Below are positions 2,069 through 9,331 of a stretch of 64,000 bases of DNA, piece after piece; within the stretch, counting starts at the first letter, position 1, and each line of letters begins with the position of its first letter. Under the pieces are notes generated by a model. It worked only from the letters and a program-made list of their open reading frames with translations, did not search any database and had not been told where the DNA came from. The stretch lies in NCBI RefSeq assembly GCF_057098645.1, contig NZ_CM169472.1, one strand, 5' to 3'. A program made the position numbers and the translations under genes.

Positions 2069-2854
2069 ATGAGTACAGCACTCGCAACGCTGGCTGGGAA
2101 GCTGGCTGAACGTGTCGGCATGGATTCTGTCGACCCACAGGAACTGATCACCACTCTTCGCCAGACGGCATTTAAAGGTGATGCCAGCGATGCGCAGTTC
2201 ATCGCATTGTTGATCGTCGCCAACCAGTACGGCCTTAATCCGTGGACGAAAGAAATTTACGCCTTCCCTGATAAGCAGAACGGCATCGTTCCGGTGGTGG
2301 GCGTTGATGGCTGGTCCCGCATCATCAATGAAAACCAGCAGTTTGATGGCATGGACTTTGAGCAGGACAATGAATCATGTACATGCAGGATTTACCGCAA
2401 GGACCGTAATCATCCGATCTGCGTTACCGAATGGATGGATGAATGCCGCCGCGAACCATTCAAAACCCGCGAAGGCAGAGAAATCACCGGACCGTGGCAG
2501 TCGCATCCCAAACGGATGTTACGGCATAAATCCATGATTCAGTGTGCCCGTCTCGCCTTCGGATTTGCTGGTATCTATGACAAGGATGAAGCCGAGCGCA
2601 TTGTCGAAAATACTGCATACACTGCAGAACGTCAGCTGGAACGCGACATCACTCCGGTTAACGATGAAACCATGCAGGAGATTAACACTCTGCTAATCGC
2701 CCTGGATAAAACATGGGATGACGACTTATTGCCGCTCTGTTCCCAGATATTTCGCCGCGACATTCGCGCATCGTCAGAACTGACACAGGCCGAAGCAGTG
2801 AAAGCTCTTGGATTCCTGAAACAGAAAGCCACTGAGCAGAAGGTGGCAGCATGA
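2069..2854 (+). CDS. bet: Bet (Red beta single-strand annealing protein)
   Basis: 261-aa translation [48 protein letters not shown]... recognised as lambda Bet. Confidence 0.92.
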
Positions 2855-3531
2855 CACCGGACATTATCCTGCAGCGTACCGGGATCGACGTGAGAGCTGT
2901 CGAACAGGGGGATGATGCATGGCACAAATTACGGCTCGGCGTCATCACCGCTTCAGAAGTTCACAACGTGATAGCAAAGCCCCGCTCAGGAAAGAAGTGG
3001 CCTGACATGAAAATGTCCTACTTCCACACCCTGCTGGCTGAGGTTTGCACCGGTGTGGCTCCGGAAGTTAATGCTAAGGCGCTGGCCTGGGGAAAACAGT
3101 ACGAGAACGACGCCAGAACCCTGTTTGAATTCACTTCCGGCGTGAATGTTACTGAATCCCCGATCATCTATCGCGACGAAAGTATGCGTACCGCCTGCTC
3201 TCCGGATGGATTATGCAGTGACGGCAACGGCCTTGAGCTGAAATGTCCGTTTACCTCCCGGGATTTCATGAAATTCCGGCTCGGTGGTTTCGAGGCCATA
3301 AAATCAGCTTACATGGCCCAGGTGCAATTCAGCATGTGGGTGACTCGAAAAGATGCCTGGTACTTTGCCAACTATGACCCGCGCATGAAGCGTGAAGGCC
3401 TGCATTATGTCGTGGTCGAGCGGGATGAAAAATACATGGCTGGTTTTGACGAGATGGTGCCGGAGTTCATCGAAAAAATGGACGAGGCACTGGCTGAAAT
3501 TGGTTTTGTATTTGGGGAGCAATGGCGATGA
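2851..3531 (+). CDS. exo: Exo (Red alpha 5'-3' exonuclease)
   Basis: 226-aa translation [40 protein letters not shown]... recognised as lambda Exo. Start overlaps the bet stop (ATGA). Confidence 0.92.
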
Positions 3532-3954: not shown

Positions 3955-4166
3955 CACCTCAGCAAGAAAACGCCCTTCGCAGTATTGCCCGTCAGGCTAA
4001 TTCTGAAATCAAAAAAGCCAGACAGCAGTTTCCGGATAAAAACGTCGATGACATTTGCCGTAGCGTACTGAAGAAGCACCGCGAAACGGTAACGCTGATG
4101 GGATTCACACCGACTCACTTAAGTCTGGCAATCGGTATGTTAAACGGCGTCTTTAAGGAACGGTGA
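3951..4166 (+). CDS. Small phage ORF (71 aa)
   Basis: Internal ATG of ORF 3885..4166, chosen because it is translationally coupled to the upstream micropeptide. Translation MTPQQENALRSIARQANSEIKKARQQF... Confidence 0.4.
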   Translation: MTPQQENALRSIARQANSEIKKARQQFPDKNVDDICRSVLKKHRETVTLMGFTPTHLSLAIGMLNGVFKER

Positions 4167-4264
4167 ACATGAAAAGCAAAATCATCAGGGAGCTACAGGC
4201 TCCTTTTTTATTATTCGCATTCACCCTCAAGCGTATTAACCAACAATTCAGGGATTAATGAAAG

Positions 4265-4486
4265 ATGGCAGATATCATTGATTCAGCATCAGAAATTGAA
4301 GAATTACAGCGCAATACAGCAATAAAAATGCGTCGCCTGAACTACCAGACTGTATCCGCAACTCATTGTTGTGAGTGTGGCGATCCGATAGATGAACGAA
4401 GACGCCTGGCAGTTCAGGGTTGTCGGACTTGTGCAAGTTGCCAGGAGGATCTGGAGCTTATCAGTAAACAGAGAGGTTCGAAGTGA
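4265..4486 (+). CDS. TraR/DksA-family C4 zinc-finger protein (lambda orf73-like)
   Basis: 73 aa with CxxC...CxxC (CCECGDPIDERRRLAVQGCRTCASC), the DksA/TraR zinc-ribbon signature. Confidence 0.7.
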   Translation: MADIIDSASEIEELQRNTAIKMRRLNYQTVSATHCCECGDPIDERRRLAVQGCRTCASCQEDLELISKQRGSK

Positions 4487-5169
4487 GCGAAATTAATTAT
4501 CAGGCACTGCGTGAAAAGGCAGAGAAAGCAACTAAAGGAAGCTACATCGTAGGGCATACATCTGTTAACCAGCACGGCAATTTAACAGGAGTTTTTGTTT
4601 GCCAAAAATGGAAAGGAGAACCCGGTGGTGTGATTGCGGAATGTCATGTTAACTGCCTGGTTGAAACAGATGTTCAGGCTTATGCAAACGCTGAATTTAT
4701 TGCTGCTTTTAATCCAAATGTTGCGCTGGCACTACTGGATGAACGGGAAAGAAACCAGCAATACATCAAACGCCGCGACCAGGAGAACGAGGAGATTGCG
4801 CTTACGGTTGGGAAGCTGCGCGTTGAGCTGGAAGCCGCAGAGAAGCGCAACGCAAAATTACAAAGCGAGAATGCATACATCCGCAACCGGTACAAAGAAC
4901 TGGACCTGTTAATCGGGAAAAACATTCTGGTCATGCAGGCTGCCATTATCGAATGGCAATCGACTGGCGACGCTAAAAGCGGACTGGCATGGATTTATAA
5001 CACACTGTTTGGCCCAGGCGAATTGCCGGACGAATCTGAGAAAGATGCTCAGGCCTACTTTAATCGCAAATATGCACCGATTGACGAAAAGCTTATGGCG
5101 CTTCACAAGTGGTTTTGGGAACAAAGTGAAGCCGAGCGCGCCGCTGGCATTTGCATCAAAGGAGAGTGA
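4483..5169 (+). CDS. Ea22-like coiled-coil accessory protein (228 aa)
   Basis: Central heptad-rich segment (ALTVGKLRVELEAAEKRNAKLQSENAYIRNRYKELD). Position between exo and xis as for lambda ea22. Function unknown. Confidence 0.5.
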   Translation: MSEINYQALREKAEKATKGSYIVGHTSVNQHGNLTGVFVCQKWKGEPGGVIAECHVNCLVETDVQAYANAEFIAAFNPNVALALLDERERNQQYIKRRDQENEEIALTVGKLRVELEAAEKRNAKLQSENAYIRNRYKELDLLIGKNILVMQAAIIEWQSTGDAKSGLAWIYNTLFGPGELPDESEKDAQAYFNRKYAPIDEKLMALHKWFWEQSEAERAAGICIKGE

Positions 5170-5170
5170 T

Positions 5171-5674
5171 ATGACCACTATTACCAAAGAGCGACTACTG
5201 ACAATCAAGCAGTGGCGCGAAACATACGGACCTGGTAGCAACGTTGTACTGCCAGCAGAAGAAGCGGAAGAACTGGCACGAATTGCTCTGGCATCGCTGG
5301 AAGCAAAACCAATAGCGTGGGAATGCGGCGAAAACATAATCCTGTTTAATCCTGACACAGTTGAAGCATACGCAAAACGTGCGGAGATATCACCTAAACC
5401 ACTATATGCCGCGCCGCCAGTTCCGGTAACTCCGGATGGTTGGATAAGCTGTAGTGAGCAAATGCCAGAAATGGGAGAGCGACAATGCTATGTGTTAGCG
5501 GCTGACTTTAAAAACAACTACCCGCCAAACATCCCCAACACTCAGGTCGGCGTATATGGCGACTGGTTTAATGATGGCAATCCCACTTGGGATGACGGTG
5601 ATGGCGAAGACCTGTATCTCAAAGAGGTAACCCACTGGATGCCGCTACCGGAACCGCCGCAGGAGGTGAAGTGA
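5171..5674 (+). CDS. DUF551-like phage protein (167 aa)
   Basis: Internal ATG at 5171 immediately after the Ea22-like stop, preceded by AAAGGAGAG. C-terminal W/D/G-rich region (GDWFNDGNPTWDDGDGEDLYLKEVTHWMPLP) resembles DUF551 proteins common in prophage accessory regions. Confidence 0.55.
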   Translation: MTTITKERLLTIKQWRETYGPGSNVVLPAEEAEELARIALASLEAKPIAWECGENIILFNPDTVEAYAKRAEISPKPLYAAPPVPVTPDGWISCSEQMPEMGERQCYVLAADFKNNYPPNIPNTQVGVYGDWFNDGNPTWDDGDGEDLYLKEVTHWMPLPEPPQEVK

Positions 5675-5757
5675 TGAATTGGCCTGAAGCATTCACCGCT
5701 GTAGGAGTTGCAATAGCGGTGGCATTTATTCTGTATTCGCTTTTCCGCTGGGGATAA
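5674..5757 (+). CDS. Putative 27-aa hydrophobic micropeptide
   Basis: ATG overlaps the upstream TGA (5672..5674), with AGGAGGTGA RBS. Translation MNWPEAFTAVGVAIAVAFILYSLFRWG is one predicted transmembrane helix. Confidence 0.3.
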   Translation: MNWPEAFTAVGVAIAVAFILYSLFRWG

Positions 5758-5761
5758 AGGA

Positions 5762-6004
5762 ATGTTCGCTCTGATTCAACGTGGTCAGATATACACCGAT
5801 AGCGCCGGCTATCCGATAAAAATTCTTCGCTGCATAAACAACACTGTGTTGTACAGAAGAATGGATGGGCGAACACAGTCGGTAAAAATAAACGATTTTA
5901 ATGAACTGTTTGAACGGATTGATCACCAGGAATACCGACAAATTCTGGCAGAAACAGAGCAGGAAGCTCATCTGAAAAAATTACGAGCCATGAAAAGGAA
6001 GTAA
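5762..6004 (+). CDS. Hypothetical phage protein (80 aa)
   Basis: ORF begins 5 nt after the micropeptide stop, same operon orientation. No family recognised. Confidence 0.45.
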   Translation: MFALIQRGQIYTDSAGYPIKILRCINNTVLYRRMDGRTQSVKINDFNELFERIDHQEYRQILAETEQEAHLKKLRAMKRK

Positions 6005-6007
6005 AGA

Positions 6008-6142
6008 ATGAATAAAGCATTTGAACGATGGGTCCACCAGCGTTACGGCAATCGCTATGACCTGACGCGAGGTGGTGACGGTTTCTACTGTCGTGAAGTT
6101 GTGAAGCGAATGTTTGAAGTGTGGTGCCACTGCCGTGGATGA
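6008..6142 (+). CDS. Putative 44-aa Cys/His-rich small protein
   Basis: ATG 4 nt after the preceding stop. Translation MNKAFERWVHQRYGNRYDLTRGGDGFYCREVVKRMFEVWCHCRG. Not in the supplied ORF track, which has a 60-aa cut-off. Confidence 0.3.
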   Translation: MNKAFERWVHQRYGNRYDLTRGGDGFYCREVVKRMFEVWCHCRG

Positions 6143-6160
6143 AAATTTTATGAGGTTGGC

Positions 6161-6415
6161 ATGCAGACAATCATCTATCAGATAACCCCCAGCAAATGGT
6201 GTACGGAGAGAGTCCTCATTGCATCAACAGGGCTAAAGCCTGGCACCATCGAGCGAGCCAGAAGAAAGTCATGGATGCAGGGAAAAGAATACCGCCATTA
6301 CGCTGTAGAAGGTGATCCGGGGCATTACAGTGAATGCCTGTACAACATCGAAGAAATTATGCGATGGATCGAAAACCAGAAACAACCAGGTGCCAAAAAT
6401 GCAAGTTCCGGTTAA
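6161..6415 (+). CDS. xis: Excisionase-like DNA-binding protein
   Basis: 84-aa basic protein immediately upstream of int, as expected for a phage Xis. Assignment is by position and composition, not by strong sequence recognition. Confidence 0.5.
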   Translation: MQTIIYQITPSKWCTERVLIASTGLKPGTIERARRKSWMQGKEYRHYAVEGDPGHYSECLYNIEEIMRWIENQKQPGAKNASSG

Positions 6416-6448
6416 CCTGTTAATGCTCCTGGACGTCTGGGAGGTTTT

Positions 6449-7735
6449 ATGAGTAACGCATCATACCCGACAGGCGTTGAAAACCATGGAGGATCACTCC
6501 GTATATGGTTTCACTATAATGGCAAACGTGTCAGAGAAAACCTCGGTGTTCCTGACACCGCCAAAAACCGGAAGATCGCTGGTGAGCTTCGCACTTCTGT
6601 TTGTTTTGCAATCAGAATGGGGAGTTTCGACTACGCCGCGCAGTTCCCTAATTCCCCTAACCTGAAACACTTTGGTCTGGGAAAAAGAGAGATAACCGTT
6701 AAGGCACTTTCGGAAAAATGGTTGGACCTTAAGAAAATTGAGATTTGTACGAATGCACTTAACCGTTACCAGTCAGTAATTAAAAACATGTTACCAATGT
6801 TAGGTGAAAAAAAACTGGTTTCATCCATAACAAAAGAGGATTTACTTTTCGTAAGGAGAGATTTGTTGACCGGTTACCAAAAGCTTTCTAATGGAAAGAC
6901 TTCTTCCATAAAAGGGCGCTCAGTGGTCACGGTAAACTACTATATGACAACCATAGCTGGAATGTTTCAATTTGCAACAGATAATGGTTATACCTCAGGA
7001 AACCCATTTAACGGTCTGGCTCCCTTAAAAAAGTCCAAGGTAAAACCAGATCCTCTCACCCGTGACGAATTTATTCGTTTTATTGAGGCTTGCCGTCATC
7101 AACAAACAAAAAACCTGTGGATTCTCGCTGTATACACGGGTATTCGTCACGGGGAGTTGGTATCGCTGGCATGGGAAGATATAGACCTTAAAGCAAGGAC
7201 TATAACCATCCGTAGAAATTATACAAAACTTGGCGAATTCACTCCACCAAAAACCGATGCTGGCACCGGAAGGACAATTCATCTGGTTCAACCAGCTATT
7301 GATGCTCTTAAAAGCCAAGCGGAAATGACCATGCTTGGAAAGCAACATTCTGTAGAGGTAAAGCAGAGGGAATATGGGAGAACTGCTGTGCATAAATGTA
7401 CTTTTGTTTTTAGCCCTCAGGTAATAAAACAGCAGCTGTTGTCTGGACCTCACTACAAAGTTGACTCCATCAGGGAGTCATGGACAAGTATCTTAAAACG
7501 CGCAGGTCTGAGACACAGAAAATCGTACCAATCCAGGCATACTTATGCATGCTGGTCACTTGCCGCTGGAGCTAATCCTAGTTTTATCGCAAGCCAGATG
7601 GGCCACACAAACGCACAAATGGTATTCAATGTTTACGGAGCATGGATGAAAGACAACAATCACGAACAGATAGAACTCCTTAACAAAAGACTATCTGAAA
7701 GTGTCCCATGTATGCCCCATAAGAAAGTGGGGTAA
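6449..7735 (+). CDS. int: Phage integrase, tyrosine recombinase family
   Basis: 428 aa. C-terminal catalytic region with conserved Arg/His and terminal Tyr (RHTYACW...GHTNAQMVFNVYGAW). Last phage gene before the host junction. Confidence 0.9.
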   Translation: MSNASYPTGVENHGGSLRIWFHYNGKRVRENLGVPDTAKNRKIAGELRTSVCFAIRMGSFDYAAQFPNSPNLKHFGLGKREITVKALSEKWLDLKKIEICTNALNRYQSVIKNMLPMLGEKKLVSSITKEDLLFVRRDLLTGYQKLSNGKTSSIKGRSVVTVNYYMTTIAGMFQFATDNGYTSGNPFNGLAPLKKSKVKPDPLTRDEFIRFIEACRHQQTKNLWILAVYTGIRHGELVSLAWEDIDLKARTITIRRNYTKLGEFTPPKTDAGTGRTIHLVQPAIDALKSQAEMTMLGKQHSVEVKQREYGRTAVHKCTFVFSPQVIKQQLLSGPHYKVDSIRESWTSILKRAGLRHRKSYQSRHTYACWSLAAGANPSFIASQMGHTNAQMVFNVYGAWMKDNNHEQIELLNKRLSESVPCMPHKKVG

Positions 7736-7773
7736 AATAAAAACTTGTAAAATCAGTTAGTTTACCCTTAATC

Positions 7774-8373
7774 CCTGTCACGTTACGCGCGTGGCAGAGG
7801 CGTTACGGATTGCTGAAACCGCAACGGACAGACGGCGGTCATCGGCTGTTCAACGATGCCGATATTGACCGGATCCGCGAGATCAAACGCTGGATCGACA
7901 ACGGCGTGCAGGTCAGCAAAGTTAAAATGCTGCTCAGTAATGAAAATGTTGATGTGCAGAACGGCTGGCGCGATCAGCAAGAAACATTACTGACTTACCT
8001 GCAAAGCGGCAATCTACATAGCCTGCGAACGTGGATCAAAGAGCGCGGTCAGGATTACCCCGCCCAGACACTCACCACACATCTGTTTATTCCTCTGCGC
8101 CGACGGCTTCAGTGCCAACAACCGACTCTCCAGGCGCTGCTGGCGATCCTCGACGGCGTACTGATCAACTACATCGCCATTTGTCTGGCTTCGGCACGTA
8201 AAAAACAGGGTAAAGATGCGCTGGTGGTTGGCTGGAATATTCAGGATACCACCCGTCTGTGGCTGGAGGGCTGGATTGCCAGTCAACAAGGATGGCGCAT
8301 TGATGTCCTCGCCCACTCGCTCAATCAACTACGCCCTGAACTATTCGAAGGCCGTACATTGCTGGTGCGGTGA
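7774..8373 (+). pseudogene. mlrA: mlrA (yehV) MerR-family curli regulator, 3' fragment lacking N-terminal HTH codons
   Basis: In-frame translation from about 7774 reads PVTLRAWQRRYGLLKPQRTDGGHRLFNDADIDRIREIKRW..., which matches MlrA from roughly residue 17 onward. Upstream sequence is phage (int). The ORF-track start at 7810 is a TTG. Confidence 0.8.
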
Positions 8374-8511
8374 AAATCGAACCTCCGCCCAACAGCAGCA
8401 ACTCACCAGTTGGCAAGAACAAGGCCATGATATTTTCCCACTCGGCATTTAATGATTCGTTAACAAATGCGCTTTACTGTACAATCCTTTCGTTAACATA
8501 AGGAGTGCATT

Positions 8512-8619
8512 ATGCGCATAGCTAAAATTGGGGTCATCGCCCTGTTCCTGTTTATGGCGTTAGGCGGAATTGGTGGCGTCATGCTCGCAGGTTATACCTT
8601 TATTTTGCGTGCTGGCTAA
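8512..8619 (+). CDS. yohO: Small membrane protein YohO (35 aa)
   Basis: ATG preceded by AAGGAG. Translation [35 protein letters not shown] is a single transmembrane helix. Conserved position between mlrA and yehW. Confidence 0.6.
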
Positions 8620-9331
8620 GCGCCTGCACCAGCCTTTCAAACAGGCGGTCTGCGATGATCGCCGCCAGTGCCACCAGTAACGCCCCCTGGATCACATACG
8701 CGGTATTAAATCCGCTAAGCCCGATGATGATGGGCGTACCCAGCGTGCTGGCCCCTACCGTTGAGGCGATCGTCGCCGTACCAATGTTGATAATCACCGA
8801 AGTTCGCACGCCCGCCAGAATCACCGGAGCCGCCAGCGGTAGCTCGACCTTACGCAGTCGCTGACCACGACTCATTCCCATACCTTTCGCAACTTCTGTC
8901 ACGCTGGCATCAATCGCTCCCAGCCCGGCAAGTGTCGCCTGCAGGACGGGCAGCACACCGTAAAGGATCAAGGCGATAATCGCTGGTTGCAGACCAAAGC
9001 CGATCACCGGAACGGCGATCGCCAGCACTGCGACGGGCGGAAAAGTCTGTCCAACGGCGGCAATAGTTTCCACCAGTGGGCGAAATTCCGCGCCCCACGG
9101 GCGAGTGACAGCAATTCCGGCACCAGTGCCAATGATCACCGCAAACAAACTCGAAATTCCCACCAGCCAGAAATGAGCCAGTGCCAGAGCTGCAAAACTT
9201 TCTTGCTGATAAACGGGTCGTGGCAGTTGTGGGAACAAGGCAGCAAACAGCGGCTGGCTGTAAGGCAGCCAGAAAATCAGCGCCACAAACAGAGCAATGA
9301 GCCAGAACAGCGGATCGCGCAACATCTTCAT
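8600..9331 (-). CDS. yehW: Glycine betaine/osmoprotectant ABC transporter permease
   Basis: 243-aa polytopic membrane protein, first (promoter-distal) gene of the yehZYXW cluster. Confidence 0.85.

Follow-up and report, generated by a model that had tools for sequence, protein, structure and literature searches.

Gene content at the left end of the prophage

The window, a stretch of 64,000 nucleotides from contig NZ_CM169472.1 (RefSeq assembly GCF_057098645.1), opens with the left end of a lambdoid prophage, which takes up its first 7.7 kb. The prophage is integrated in mlrA, at the 5' end of the gene, and chromosomal genes follow downstream of the integrase, annotated by PGAP as mlrA (5' truncated), yohO, yehW and yehX. 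A 901-bp query (window positions 5600-6500) was found to be 100% identical to E. coli 14EC001 and 99% identical to phage JLK-2012. The features of this region are listed in Table 1. The initial annotation had described two small, tightly spaced ORFs just upstream of xis, and the coordinates proved to be exact. From DUF551 through xis and int, the string is closely packed, as the DUF551 stop overlaps the ATG of a 27-aa ORF (GTGATGA) and the 27-aa ORF, the DUF4222 gene, the 44-aa gene and xis are separated by 4, 3 and 18 nt, respectively. The exo-xis region is known to be transcribed early from pL, and its xis-proximal part varies in the number and kind of its genes (PMC8614690).

Table 1. Prophage features between exo and the integrase gene in the window.
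Feature	Position	Strand	Evidence or remark
exo	2851-3531	+	prophage gene
DUF1317 / orf60a-like, then DUF1382 / orf63-like	between exo and the zinc-finger ORF	+	
TraR/DksA-type zinc-finger ORF, 73 aa (orf73 analogue)	4265-4486	+	Pfam zf-dskA_traR, E=2e-9
Ea22-like gene	4483-5169	+	
DUF551 gene	5171-5674	+	
27-aa hydrophobic ORF MNWPEAFTAVGVAIAVAFILYSLFRWG	5674-5757	+	sequence read
80-aa DUF4222 (RgdR-family) gene	5762-6004 (ATG 5762, stop TAA 6002-6004)	+	Pfam, PGAP
Shine-Dalgarno AAGGAAG of the 44-aa gene	5995-6001	+	in the last K-R-K codons of the DUF4222 gene
44-aa PHROG 3871 microprotein gene	6008-6142 (ATG 6008, stop TGA 6140-6142)	+	phrog_3871, E=1.7e-30; RefSeq CDS WP_001030159.1
DUF1233 / XisR-type excisionase	6161-6415 (ATG 6161)	+	Pfam PF06806, E=2e-29; phrog_539 'excisionase'; PGAP xisR
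Tyrosine integrase, prophage end beside the mlrA remnant	6449-7735	+	ORF; PGAP tyrosine-type recombinase/integrase

The 27-aa ORF carries no PGAP annotation in 14EC001. Variants that keep an M-x-W-P ... RWG pattern were nevertheless found in 20 related loci, while another variant, ending in IFWG, is present in a distant locus (L089), and the exact peptide has been deposited in two NCBI records as 'hypothetical protein'. It is probably a real gene for a small membrane peptide.

Two minor observations concern the flanks of this string. The 73-aa TraR/DksA ORF is intact in the window, its stop overlapping the start of the Ea22-like gene; its counterpart in 14EC001 bears a PGAP pseudogene flag ('missing C-terminus'). 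Furthermore, the mlrA remnant (7771-8457) carries a frameshift relative to 14EC001 near its 3' end, at approximately 8367, so that its reading frame ends with LLVR and a stop codon in the window, while that of 14EC001 continues as LLVWCGENRT...

Coding status of the two small ORFs

Both ORFs are genuine genes, carried as accessory ones by a lambdoid prophage of E. coli, and have already been annotated. RefSeq CDSs in 14EC001 coincide with them, namely WP_000457735.1 ('DUF4222 domain-containing protein') and WP_001030159.1 ('hypothetical protein'), and UniProt holds entries for the exact proteins from phage JLK-2012, i.e. H6WZF9 (80 aa) and H6WZF8 (44 aa). The 80-aa gene is preceded by a Shine-Dalgarno sequence (AAGGA) just before its ATG.

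The initial annotation had considered that the 44-aa ORF could be spurious, and had pointed to conservation and codon-level selection in related phages as the way to find out, with a frame that is not conserved as the outcome that would speak against a real gene. Both frames turned out to be conserved, and that outcome was not encountered. The loci compared comprised 80 viral-contig loci (the best 80 of 490 viral loci, those most similar to the query), diverse phage records and other loci, and gapless alleles only were used for the codon-by-codon comparison, which left 22 distinct alleles of the 44-aa gene and 29 of the 80-aa gene. None of the 22 alleles of the 44-aa gene interrupts frame +1, and 27 of the 29 alleles of the 80-aa gene keep it open. 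Variable sites at codon positions 1, 2 and 3 number 16, 17 and 35 in the 44-aa gene (p=0.006, 22 alleles) and 30, 25 and 62 in the 80-aa gene (p=3e-5, 29 alleles). The dN/dS ratio of the 44-aa gene is 0.043 against Fels-1, 0.085 against CharmingMan, 0.21 against Klebsiella P18-100 and 0.26 against PhiR5_2; in the same distant comparisons with Salmonella, Klebsiella and other phages dS is 0.75-2.0, i.e. saturated, and dN 0.085-0.22. For the 80-aa gene dN/dS ranges from 0.02 to 0.24, with dS up to 1.3. Given the open frames, the variation at third positions and the low dN/dS, both ORFs are protein-coding and under purifying selection, and the 44-aa ORF is therefore a real gene rather than a spurious one.

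The antisense ORFs of the region (5898-6170, 5981-6130 and 5726-5971, minus strand) were also considered and were rejected as misfits to the substitution pattern. All three antisense frames contain stops in the 80-aa region in 29 of 29 alleles, and in the 44-aa region the sites with excess variation are the second positions of the 90-aa antisense ORF.

The 80-aa protein belongs to the DUF4222 family

The 80-aa ORF had initially been left unassigned. Instead, its product matches Pfam PF13973 (DUF4222) with 57.9 bits against a gathering cut-off of 27 (E=7.4e-16, profile positions 2-53 of 53), and it matches phrog_285 as well. The protein is basic (pI 9.66), and its predicted structure joins a Tudor/SH3-like barrel of five strands (residues 10-53) to a basic helix at the C-terminus (residues 55-79). 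As judged from this predicted model, the five-stranded Tudor-like barrel is shared with the RNA-polymerase-interacting domain of CarD and the C-terminal Tudor domains of UvrD/PcrA. Identity to the CarD/UvrD-type Tudor domains in structural alignments is 4-8%, and the protein gave no Pfam match to CarD or UvrD-type families at E ≤ 1. No solved structure related by sequence was found for DUF4222 or for the family of the 44-aa protein.

The only characterized DUF4222 protein is RgdR, which originates from a cryptic prophage or PICI (PMC3378721, PMC10877973). In EHEC O157:H7, RgdR activates the LEE1 promoter and type III secretion, represses motility and raises Congo-red binding (PMC3378721, PMC10877973), and it has been found to bind DNA without specificity in EMSA (PMC3378721). 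The activities on LEE1, motility and DNA are known only for ECs1581, which is RgdR itself, and C1493 (PMC3378721). RgdR is a protein of 99 aa encoded on OI-51 / CP-933C, a PICI-like element of EHEC O157:H7. It also matches PF13973 (82 bits, E=2e-23), and the two proteins have in common the core G-[DQ]-I-Y-x-D-x-x-G ... G ... F-x-x-x-F and the C-terminal helix. Moreover, both are small and basic and are encoded on integrated phage-type elements. However, they are only about 19% identical, and RgdR has an N-terminal extension of 13 residues that is absent from the 80-aa protein. The RGD motif from which RgdR takes its name corresponds to R7-G8-Q9 in the 80-aa protein; since its R varies even within the RgdR branch (NGD, HGD, PGD and KGD), the G is the one residue of the three that both branches always keep. 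The gene context differs too, as the RgdR gene lies next to a primase gene and no homologue of the 44-aa protein accompanies it.

The 44-aa protein: family, distribution and predicted fold

The 44-aa protein is a member of PHROG 3871, its residues 1-44 aligning with profile positions 1-44 of 48. Homologues fall into 86 clusters from at least eight enterobacterial genera (Escherichia, Shigella, Salmonella, Klebsiella, Cronobacter, Enterobacter, Pantoea, Citrobacter and Franconibacter). The family is thus a narrow one, as no more than 28 hits were obtained when 1.84 billion representative proteins were searched exhaustively with a profile. Among complete E. coli genomes, 481 of 5426 carry near-identical copies of the gene (at least 90% nucleotide identity), with 'hypothetical protein' as the annotation of each of the matches listed. 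No match was obtained in Pfam at E ≤ 1, zinc-finger models included, none in PADLOC and none of weight in NCBIfam; an assignment of the ORFs to defence or anti-defence was therefore not retained, PADLOC being empty and NCBIfam offering nothing of weight. A literature search by accession and family identifiers retrieved no papers on the 44-aa protein. One record stands apart, namely OM284015.1 ('Elizabethkingia phage EKP1'), which holds an 80%-identical homologue and would be an odd host, given that the other members of the family all come from Enterobacterales.

The protein is basic (pI 9.35), and its AlphaFold model (pLDDT 85) comprises a helix at residues 2-13, a beta-hairpin at approximately 21-27 and a continuous helix at 30-43; no solved structure was found to resemble this model. 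In 88 representatives covering the core, R16, Y17, L19, D22, G25, Y27, R29, E30, V32, R34, M35 and W39 are each conserved at 94-99%. The window protein possesses all core residues, D18 included, with the exception of D22: it reads G22-G23 (codons 22-23, positions 6071-6076), while position 22 is D in 85 of the 88 relatives. Furthermore, it ends at G44, four codons short of the common form of 48 aa. Most PHROG 3871 members have that length, with an extra L-x-V-V tail and D22, unlike the window allele. The same allele with G22 and the short tail is present in phage JLK-2012, and this allele of the 44-aa protein may be impaired. Among the family members encoded directly upstream of xis, H6WZF8 of JLK-2012 is 100% identical to the window protein, while ORF3 of BP-4795 and STM0895.1n of Fels-1 are 84% identical.

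It appears from the alignment and the predicted model that selection keeps the R-Y-D-L hairpin and the Y-x-R-E...W helix of a basic helix-hairpin-helix protein, rather than its Cys/His cluster. A protein of this kind could act as a modulator that binds a conserved protein partner, whether from the host or from the Xis/Int machinery, and would not be a metalloprotein.

Genomic neighbourhood and the link to the excisionase

The position of the two genes recalls that of Orf55 and Ea8.5 in phage lambda, which lie between ea22 and xis, where they are the final small and non-essential pL-operon genes ahead of xis, and form part of the 'variable set' in the exo-xis region (PMC8614690). Neither Orf55 (MHFRVTGEWNG...) nor Ea8.5 (Pfam Lambda_ea8_5) is related in sequence to either ORF, and the positional analogue Orf55 was thus rejected as a relative of the 44-aa ORF. 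Orf55 has been modelled as three strands and a helix (PMC8614690), unlike the predicted helix-hairpin-helix of the 44-aa protein. A relation to RcbA, which is encoded upstream of xisR in the Rac prophage of K-12, was also rejected, RcbA being a DUF1187 protein.

Gene context was counted in 90 sequences, i.e. 89 related loci and the window. A DUF1233 excisionase is the next gene downstream in 80 of the 90, a set that includes the best 80 of 490 viral loci and is therefore biased toward relatives of the query. Such an arrangement, with gaps of -20 to +18 nt between the genes, would suit a 44-aa protein that assists the DUF1233 (XisR-type) excisionase/integrase module, perhaps by tuning excision. 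The DUF1233 partners span two subtypes, A (46 loci) and B (32 loci, 49% identical to A), as well as the versions of Fels-1 and CharmingMan. In addition, one lineage carries a natural in-frame fusion of a 44-aa-family domain (MQKTPMQISFEVWMSQHHGDRYNL...) to a DUF1233 Xis (P0107, at 3962-4336 of locus L089, Logan contig DRR526068_3821), with no DUF4222 gene upstream. However, the Xis fusion was seen on two contigs only, and fusions with upstream ORFs generated by deletion (P0090 and P0098) are common in the family, so that the Xis fusion is weak evidence of a functional link. The family is also found where no DUF1233 xis is adjacent. In four loci it precedes an excisionase of 69 aa that is not of the DUF1233 type, in Klebsiella phages it precedes a small ORF converging on the integrase gene, in PhiR5_2 a member lies in the nin region, fused to an N-terminal extension, and in Citrobacter K1M and Salmonella CF-SP1 it follows DUF551 with no xis beside it. 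Conversely, XisR of Rac is a DUF1233 protein, yet it is RcbA that is encoded upstream of it. We thus regard an accessory role in the excisionase/integrase module, with the Xis/Int machinery as the partner, as unlikely.

One of the loci, L051, differs downstream of the 44-aa gene. An ORF lies approximately 146 nt after the gene, with only residues 5-35 of Xis detectable, and its product resembles OrfA of an IS3-family transposase. As only residues 5-35 of Xis remain, xis seems to have been interrupted in this locus by an insertion sequence.

Upstream, a DUF4222 gene with an identical 3-nt gap was found in 78 of the same 90 sequences, again with the best 80 of the 490 viral loci included. This fixed order and spacing, together with a Shine-Dalgarno sequence of the second gene that lies inside the first, would be expected of an obligate two-protein system, i.e. 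a complex or a toxin-antidote-like pair. On the other hand, the two proteins do not co-diverge, as identity ranges over 68-100% for DUF4222 and 89-100% for the 44-aa protein, and DNA identity breaks at their junction. The 44-aa family also occurs behind unrelated genes, as in Fels-1, CharmingMan and the Klebsiella phages, or behind DUF551 in K1M and CF-SP1; the upstream ORFs of Fels-1 and CharmingMan were tested as candidate DUF4222 proteins and are not. Since, moreover, RgdR is followed by a primase gene and PADLOC gave no match, an obligate pair is in our opinion very unlikely.

The Cys/His cluster

The Cys/His-rich end of the 44-aa protein was correctly described in the initial annotation: its last 20 residues, GFYCREVVKRMFEVWCHCRG, hold C28, C40 and C42 in addition to H41. 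It had been proposed that this cluster could bind a metal, and one may picture a zinc-knuckle-like protein with these four residues as ligands. There is a precedent for the idea at this position, as Ea8.5 of lambda is a zinc-binding protein. Nevertheless, neither ORF matches the Lambda_ea8_5 model (Pfam PF20735) at E ≤ 1, while lambda Ea8.5 matches it at 1e-48.

Three cysteines and one histidine within 20 residues, moderately conserved, do speak for a metal site. Among the 88 representatives C28 is kept in 83%, C40 in 75%, H41 in 67% and C42 in 81%, and all four are found together in 37 (42%). This is less than the conservation of the core residues, and none of the residues found in their place (R, Y, A, S, L, F and V) is a metal ligand; the distant members of the family have one Cys or none. 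The cluster does not exhibit CxxC or similar spacing either. In the AlphaFold model, residues 30-43 form one helix, so that C28 and C40/C42 lie at its opposite ends, approximately 18 Å apart, and C40, H41 and C42 are neighbours on the helix. The search against Pfam, zinc-finger models included, points the same way. Low conservation, non-ligand replacements and helix geometry thus leave metal binding without support as a property of the family, and the cluster appears from the alignment and the model to be incidental. A site formed between subunits may still exist in the members that bear CCHC. Overall, a metal-dependent function of the 44-aa protein strikes us as improbable, and the same applies to the zinc-knuckle-like arrangement.

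A conserved island between diverged modules

In the loci where it has the same neighbours, the 44-aa protein remains 89-100% identical (at least 93% in most), while DUF4222 drops to 68-72% and Xis to 49%. This stability of the protein next to diverging neighbours argues that its partner does not change along with them. The pattern is also evident in the DNA, where the 44-aa gene forms an island (approximately 5987-6147) of 92-100% identity between a left flank of 50-82% and a right flank of 30-65% in loci L008, L020, L051 and L064. We read the island as a place where modules are joined by recombination and which exchange between E. coli phages keeps similar, rather than as an element acting at the nucleotide level. 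This reading relies on synonymous sites being freely substituted in the Salmonella and Klebsiella phages, and on the finding of neither an RNA structure, nor an Rfam family, nor a promoter-like site. More specifically, folding z-scores were -0.01 and +0.12 on the two strands, Rfam gave no match at E ≤ 1, no sigma-70-like promoter was detected in 5400-6600, and no lambda-type CII box (TTGC-N6-TTGC, one mismatch allowed) in 5472-9100.

It is therefore hardly credible that the ORF is untranslated and that its 135 bp serve as a DNA or RNA element (a linker, a regulatory site or an antisense gene): the sharpness of the island and the two antisense frames that are open in 20 and 18 of the 22 alleles would agree with it, but the saturated dS at low dN against the Salmonella and Klebsiella phages, the excess of variation at third positions of the + strand, which are second positions of the antisense frame, the conserved Shine-Dalgarno sequence and 3-nt spacing, and the empty searches for RNA folding, Rfam families, promoters and CII boxes all contradict it.

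Proposed roles of the two genes

The explanation that we favour, and that we consider rather probable as a whole, is that of two accessory genes, the first coding for an RgdR-like modulator and the second for a small protein-binder whose gene sits at a joint between modules. Both would lie at the distal end of the early operon that runs leftward (exo-xis region), tightly packed and probably translationally coupled, a coupling that fits the location of the Shine-Dalgarno sequence of the 44-aa gene within the last DUF4222 codons. By analogy with RgdR, the 80-aa protein might be a small pleiotropic modulator of host transcription with low specificity, acting on DNA and/or on the transcription machinery (RNA polymerase); we advance this activity tentatively, as a possibility with somewhat less than even prospects. 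With regard to the 44-aa protein, the conserved hairpin and helix would serve to bind a partner, and a host target is a reasonable candidate, if not yet a probable one. The gene itself would mark the conserved joint at which the early-left and xis-int modules are reshuffled.

A wider generalization can be formulated as well. The phenotypes of RgdR, i.e. increased LEE expression, decreased motility and increased Congo-red binding, resemble those of hns mutants. The DUF4222/RgdR class could accordingly be imagined as global transcription modulators of phages and PICIs, with a barrel that docks on RNA polymerase as in CarD/UvrD or that counters H-NS, and its invariant 44-aa partner gene as the source of a new, host-directed microprotein fold acting together with XisR excisionases as well. 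We deem this generalization quite unlikely.

As a discovery, the finding is an ordinary one, since both genes have already been called in RefSeq and UniProt, within known families (Pfam DUF4222 and PHROG 3871), and the Cys/His cluster is not a conserved metal site. Its interest lies elsewhere. The 80-aa gene ties the variable exo-xis end of mlrA-integrated (Stx1-type) prophages to the EHEC virulence regulator RgdR, and the predicted Tudor-like barrel with its basic helix provides a testable idea of how RgdR-type proteins may act. The 44-aa gene, for its part, is a clear case of a short and highly conserved gene serving as a joint between reshuffled phage modules, and it encodes a predicted fold with no known relative.

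Finally, deletion variants that have lost most of both genes indicate that both are dispensable for prophage carriage. In E. coli O145 RM9872 (locus L090, positions 1407-1566), DUF4222 is reduced to a truncated pseudogene that runs into the final 48 nt of the 44-aa gene, just before the same xisR.
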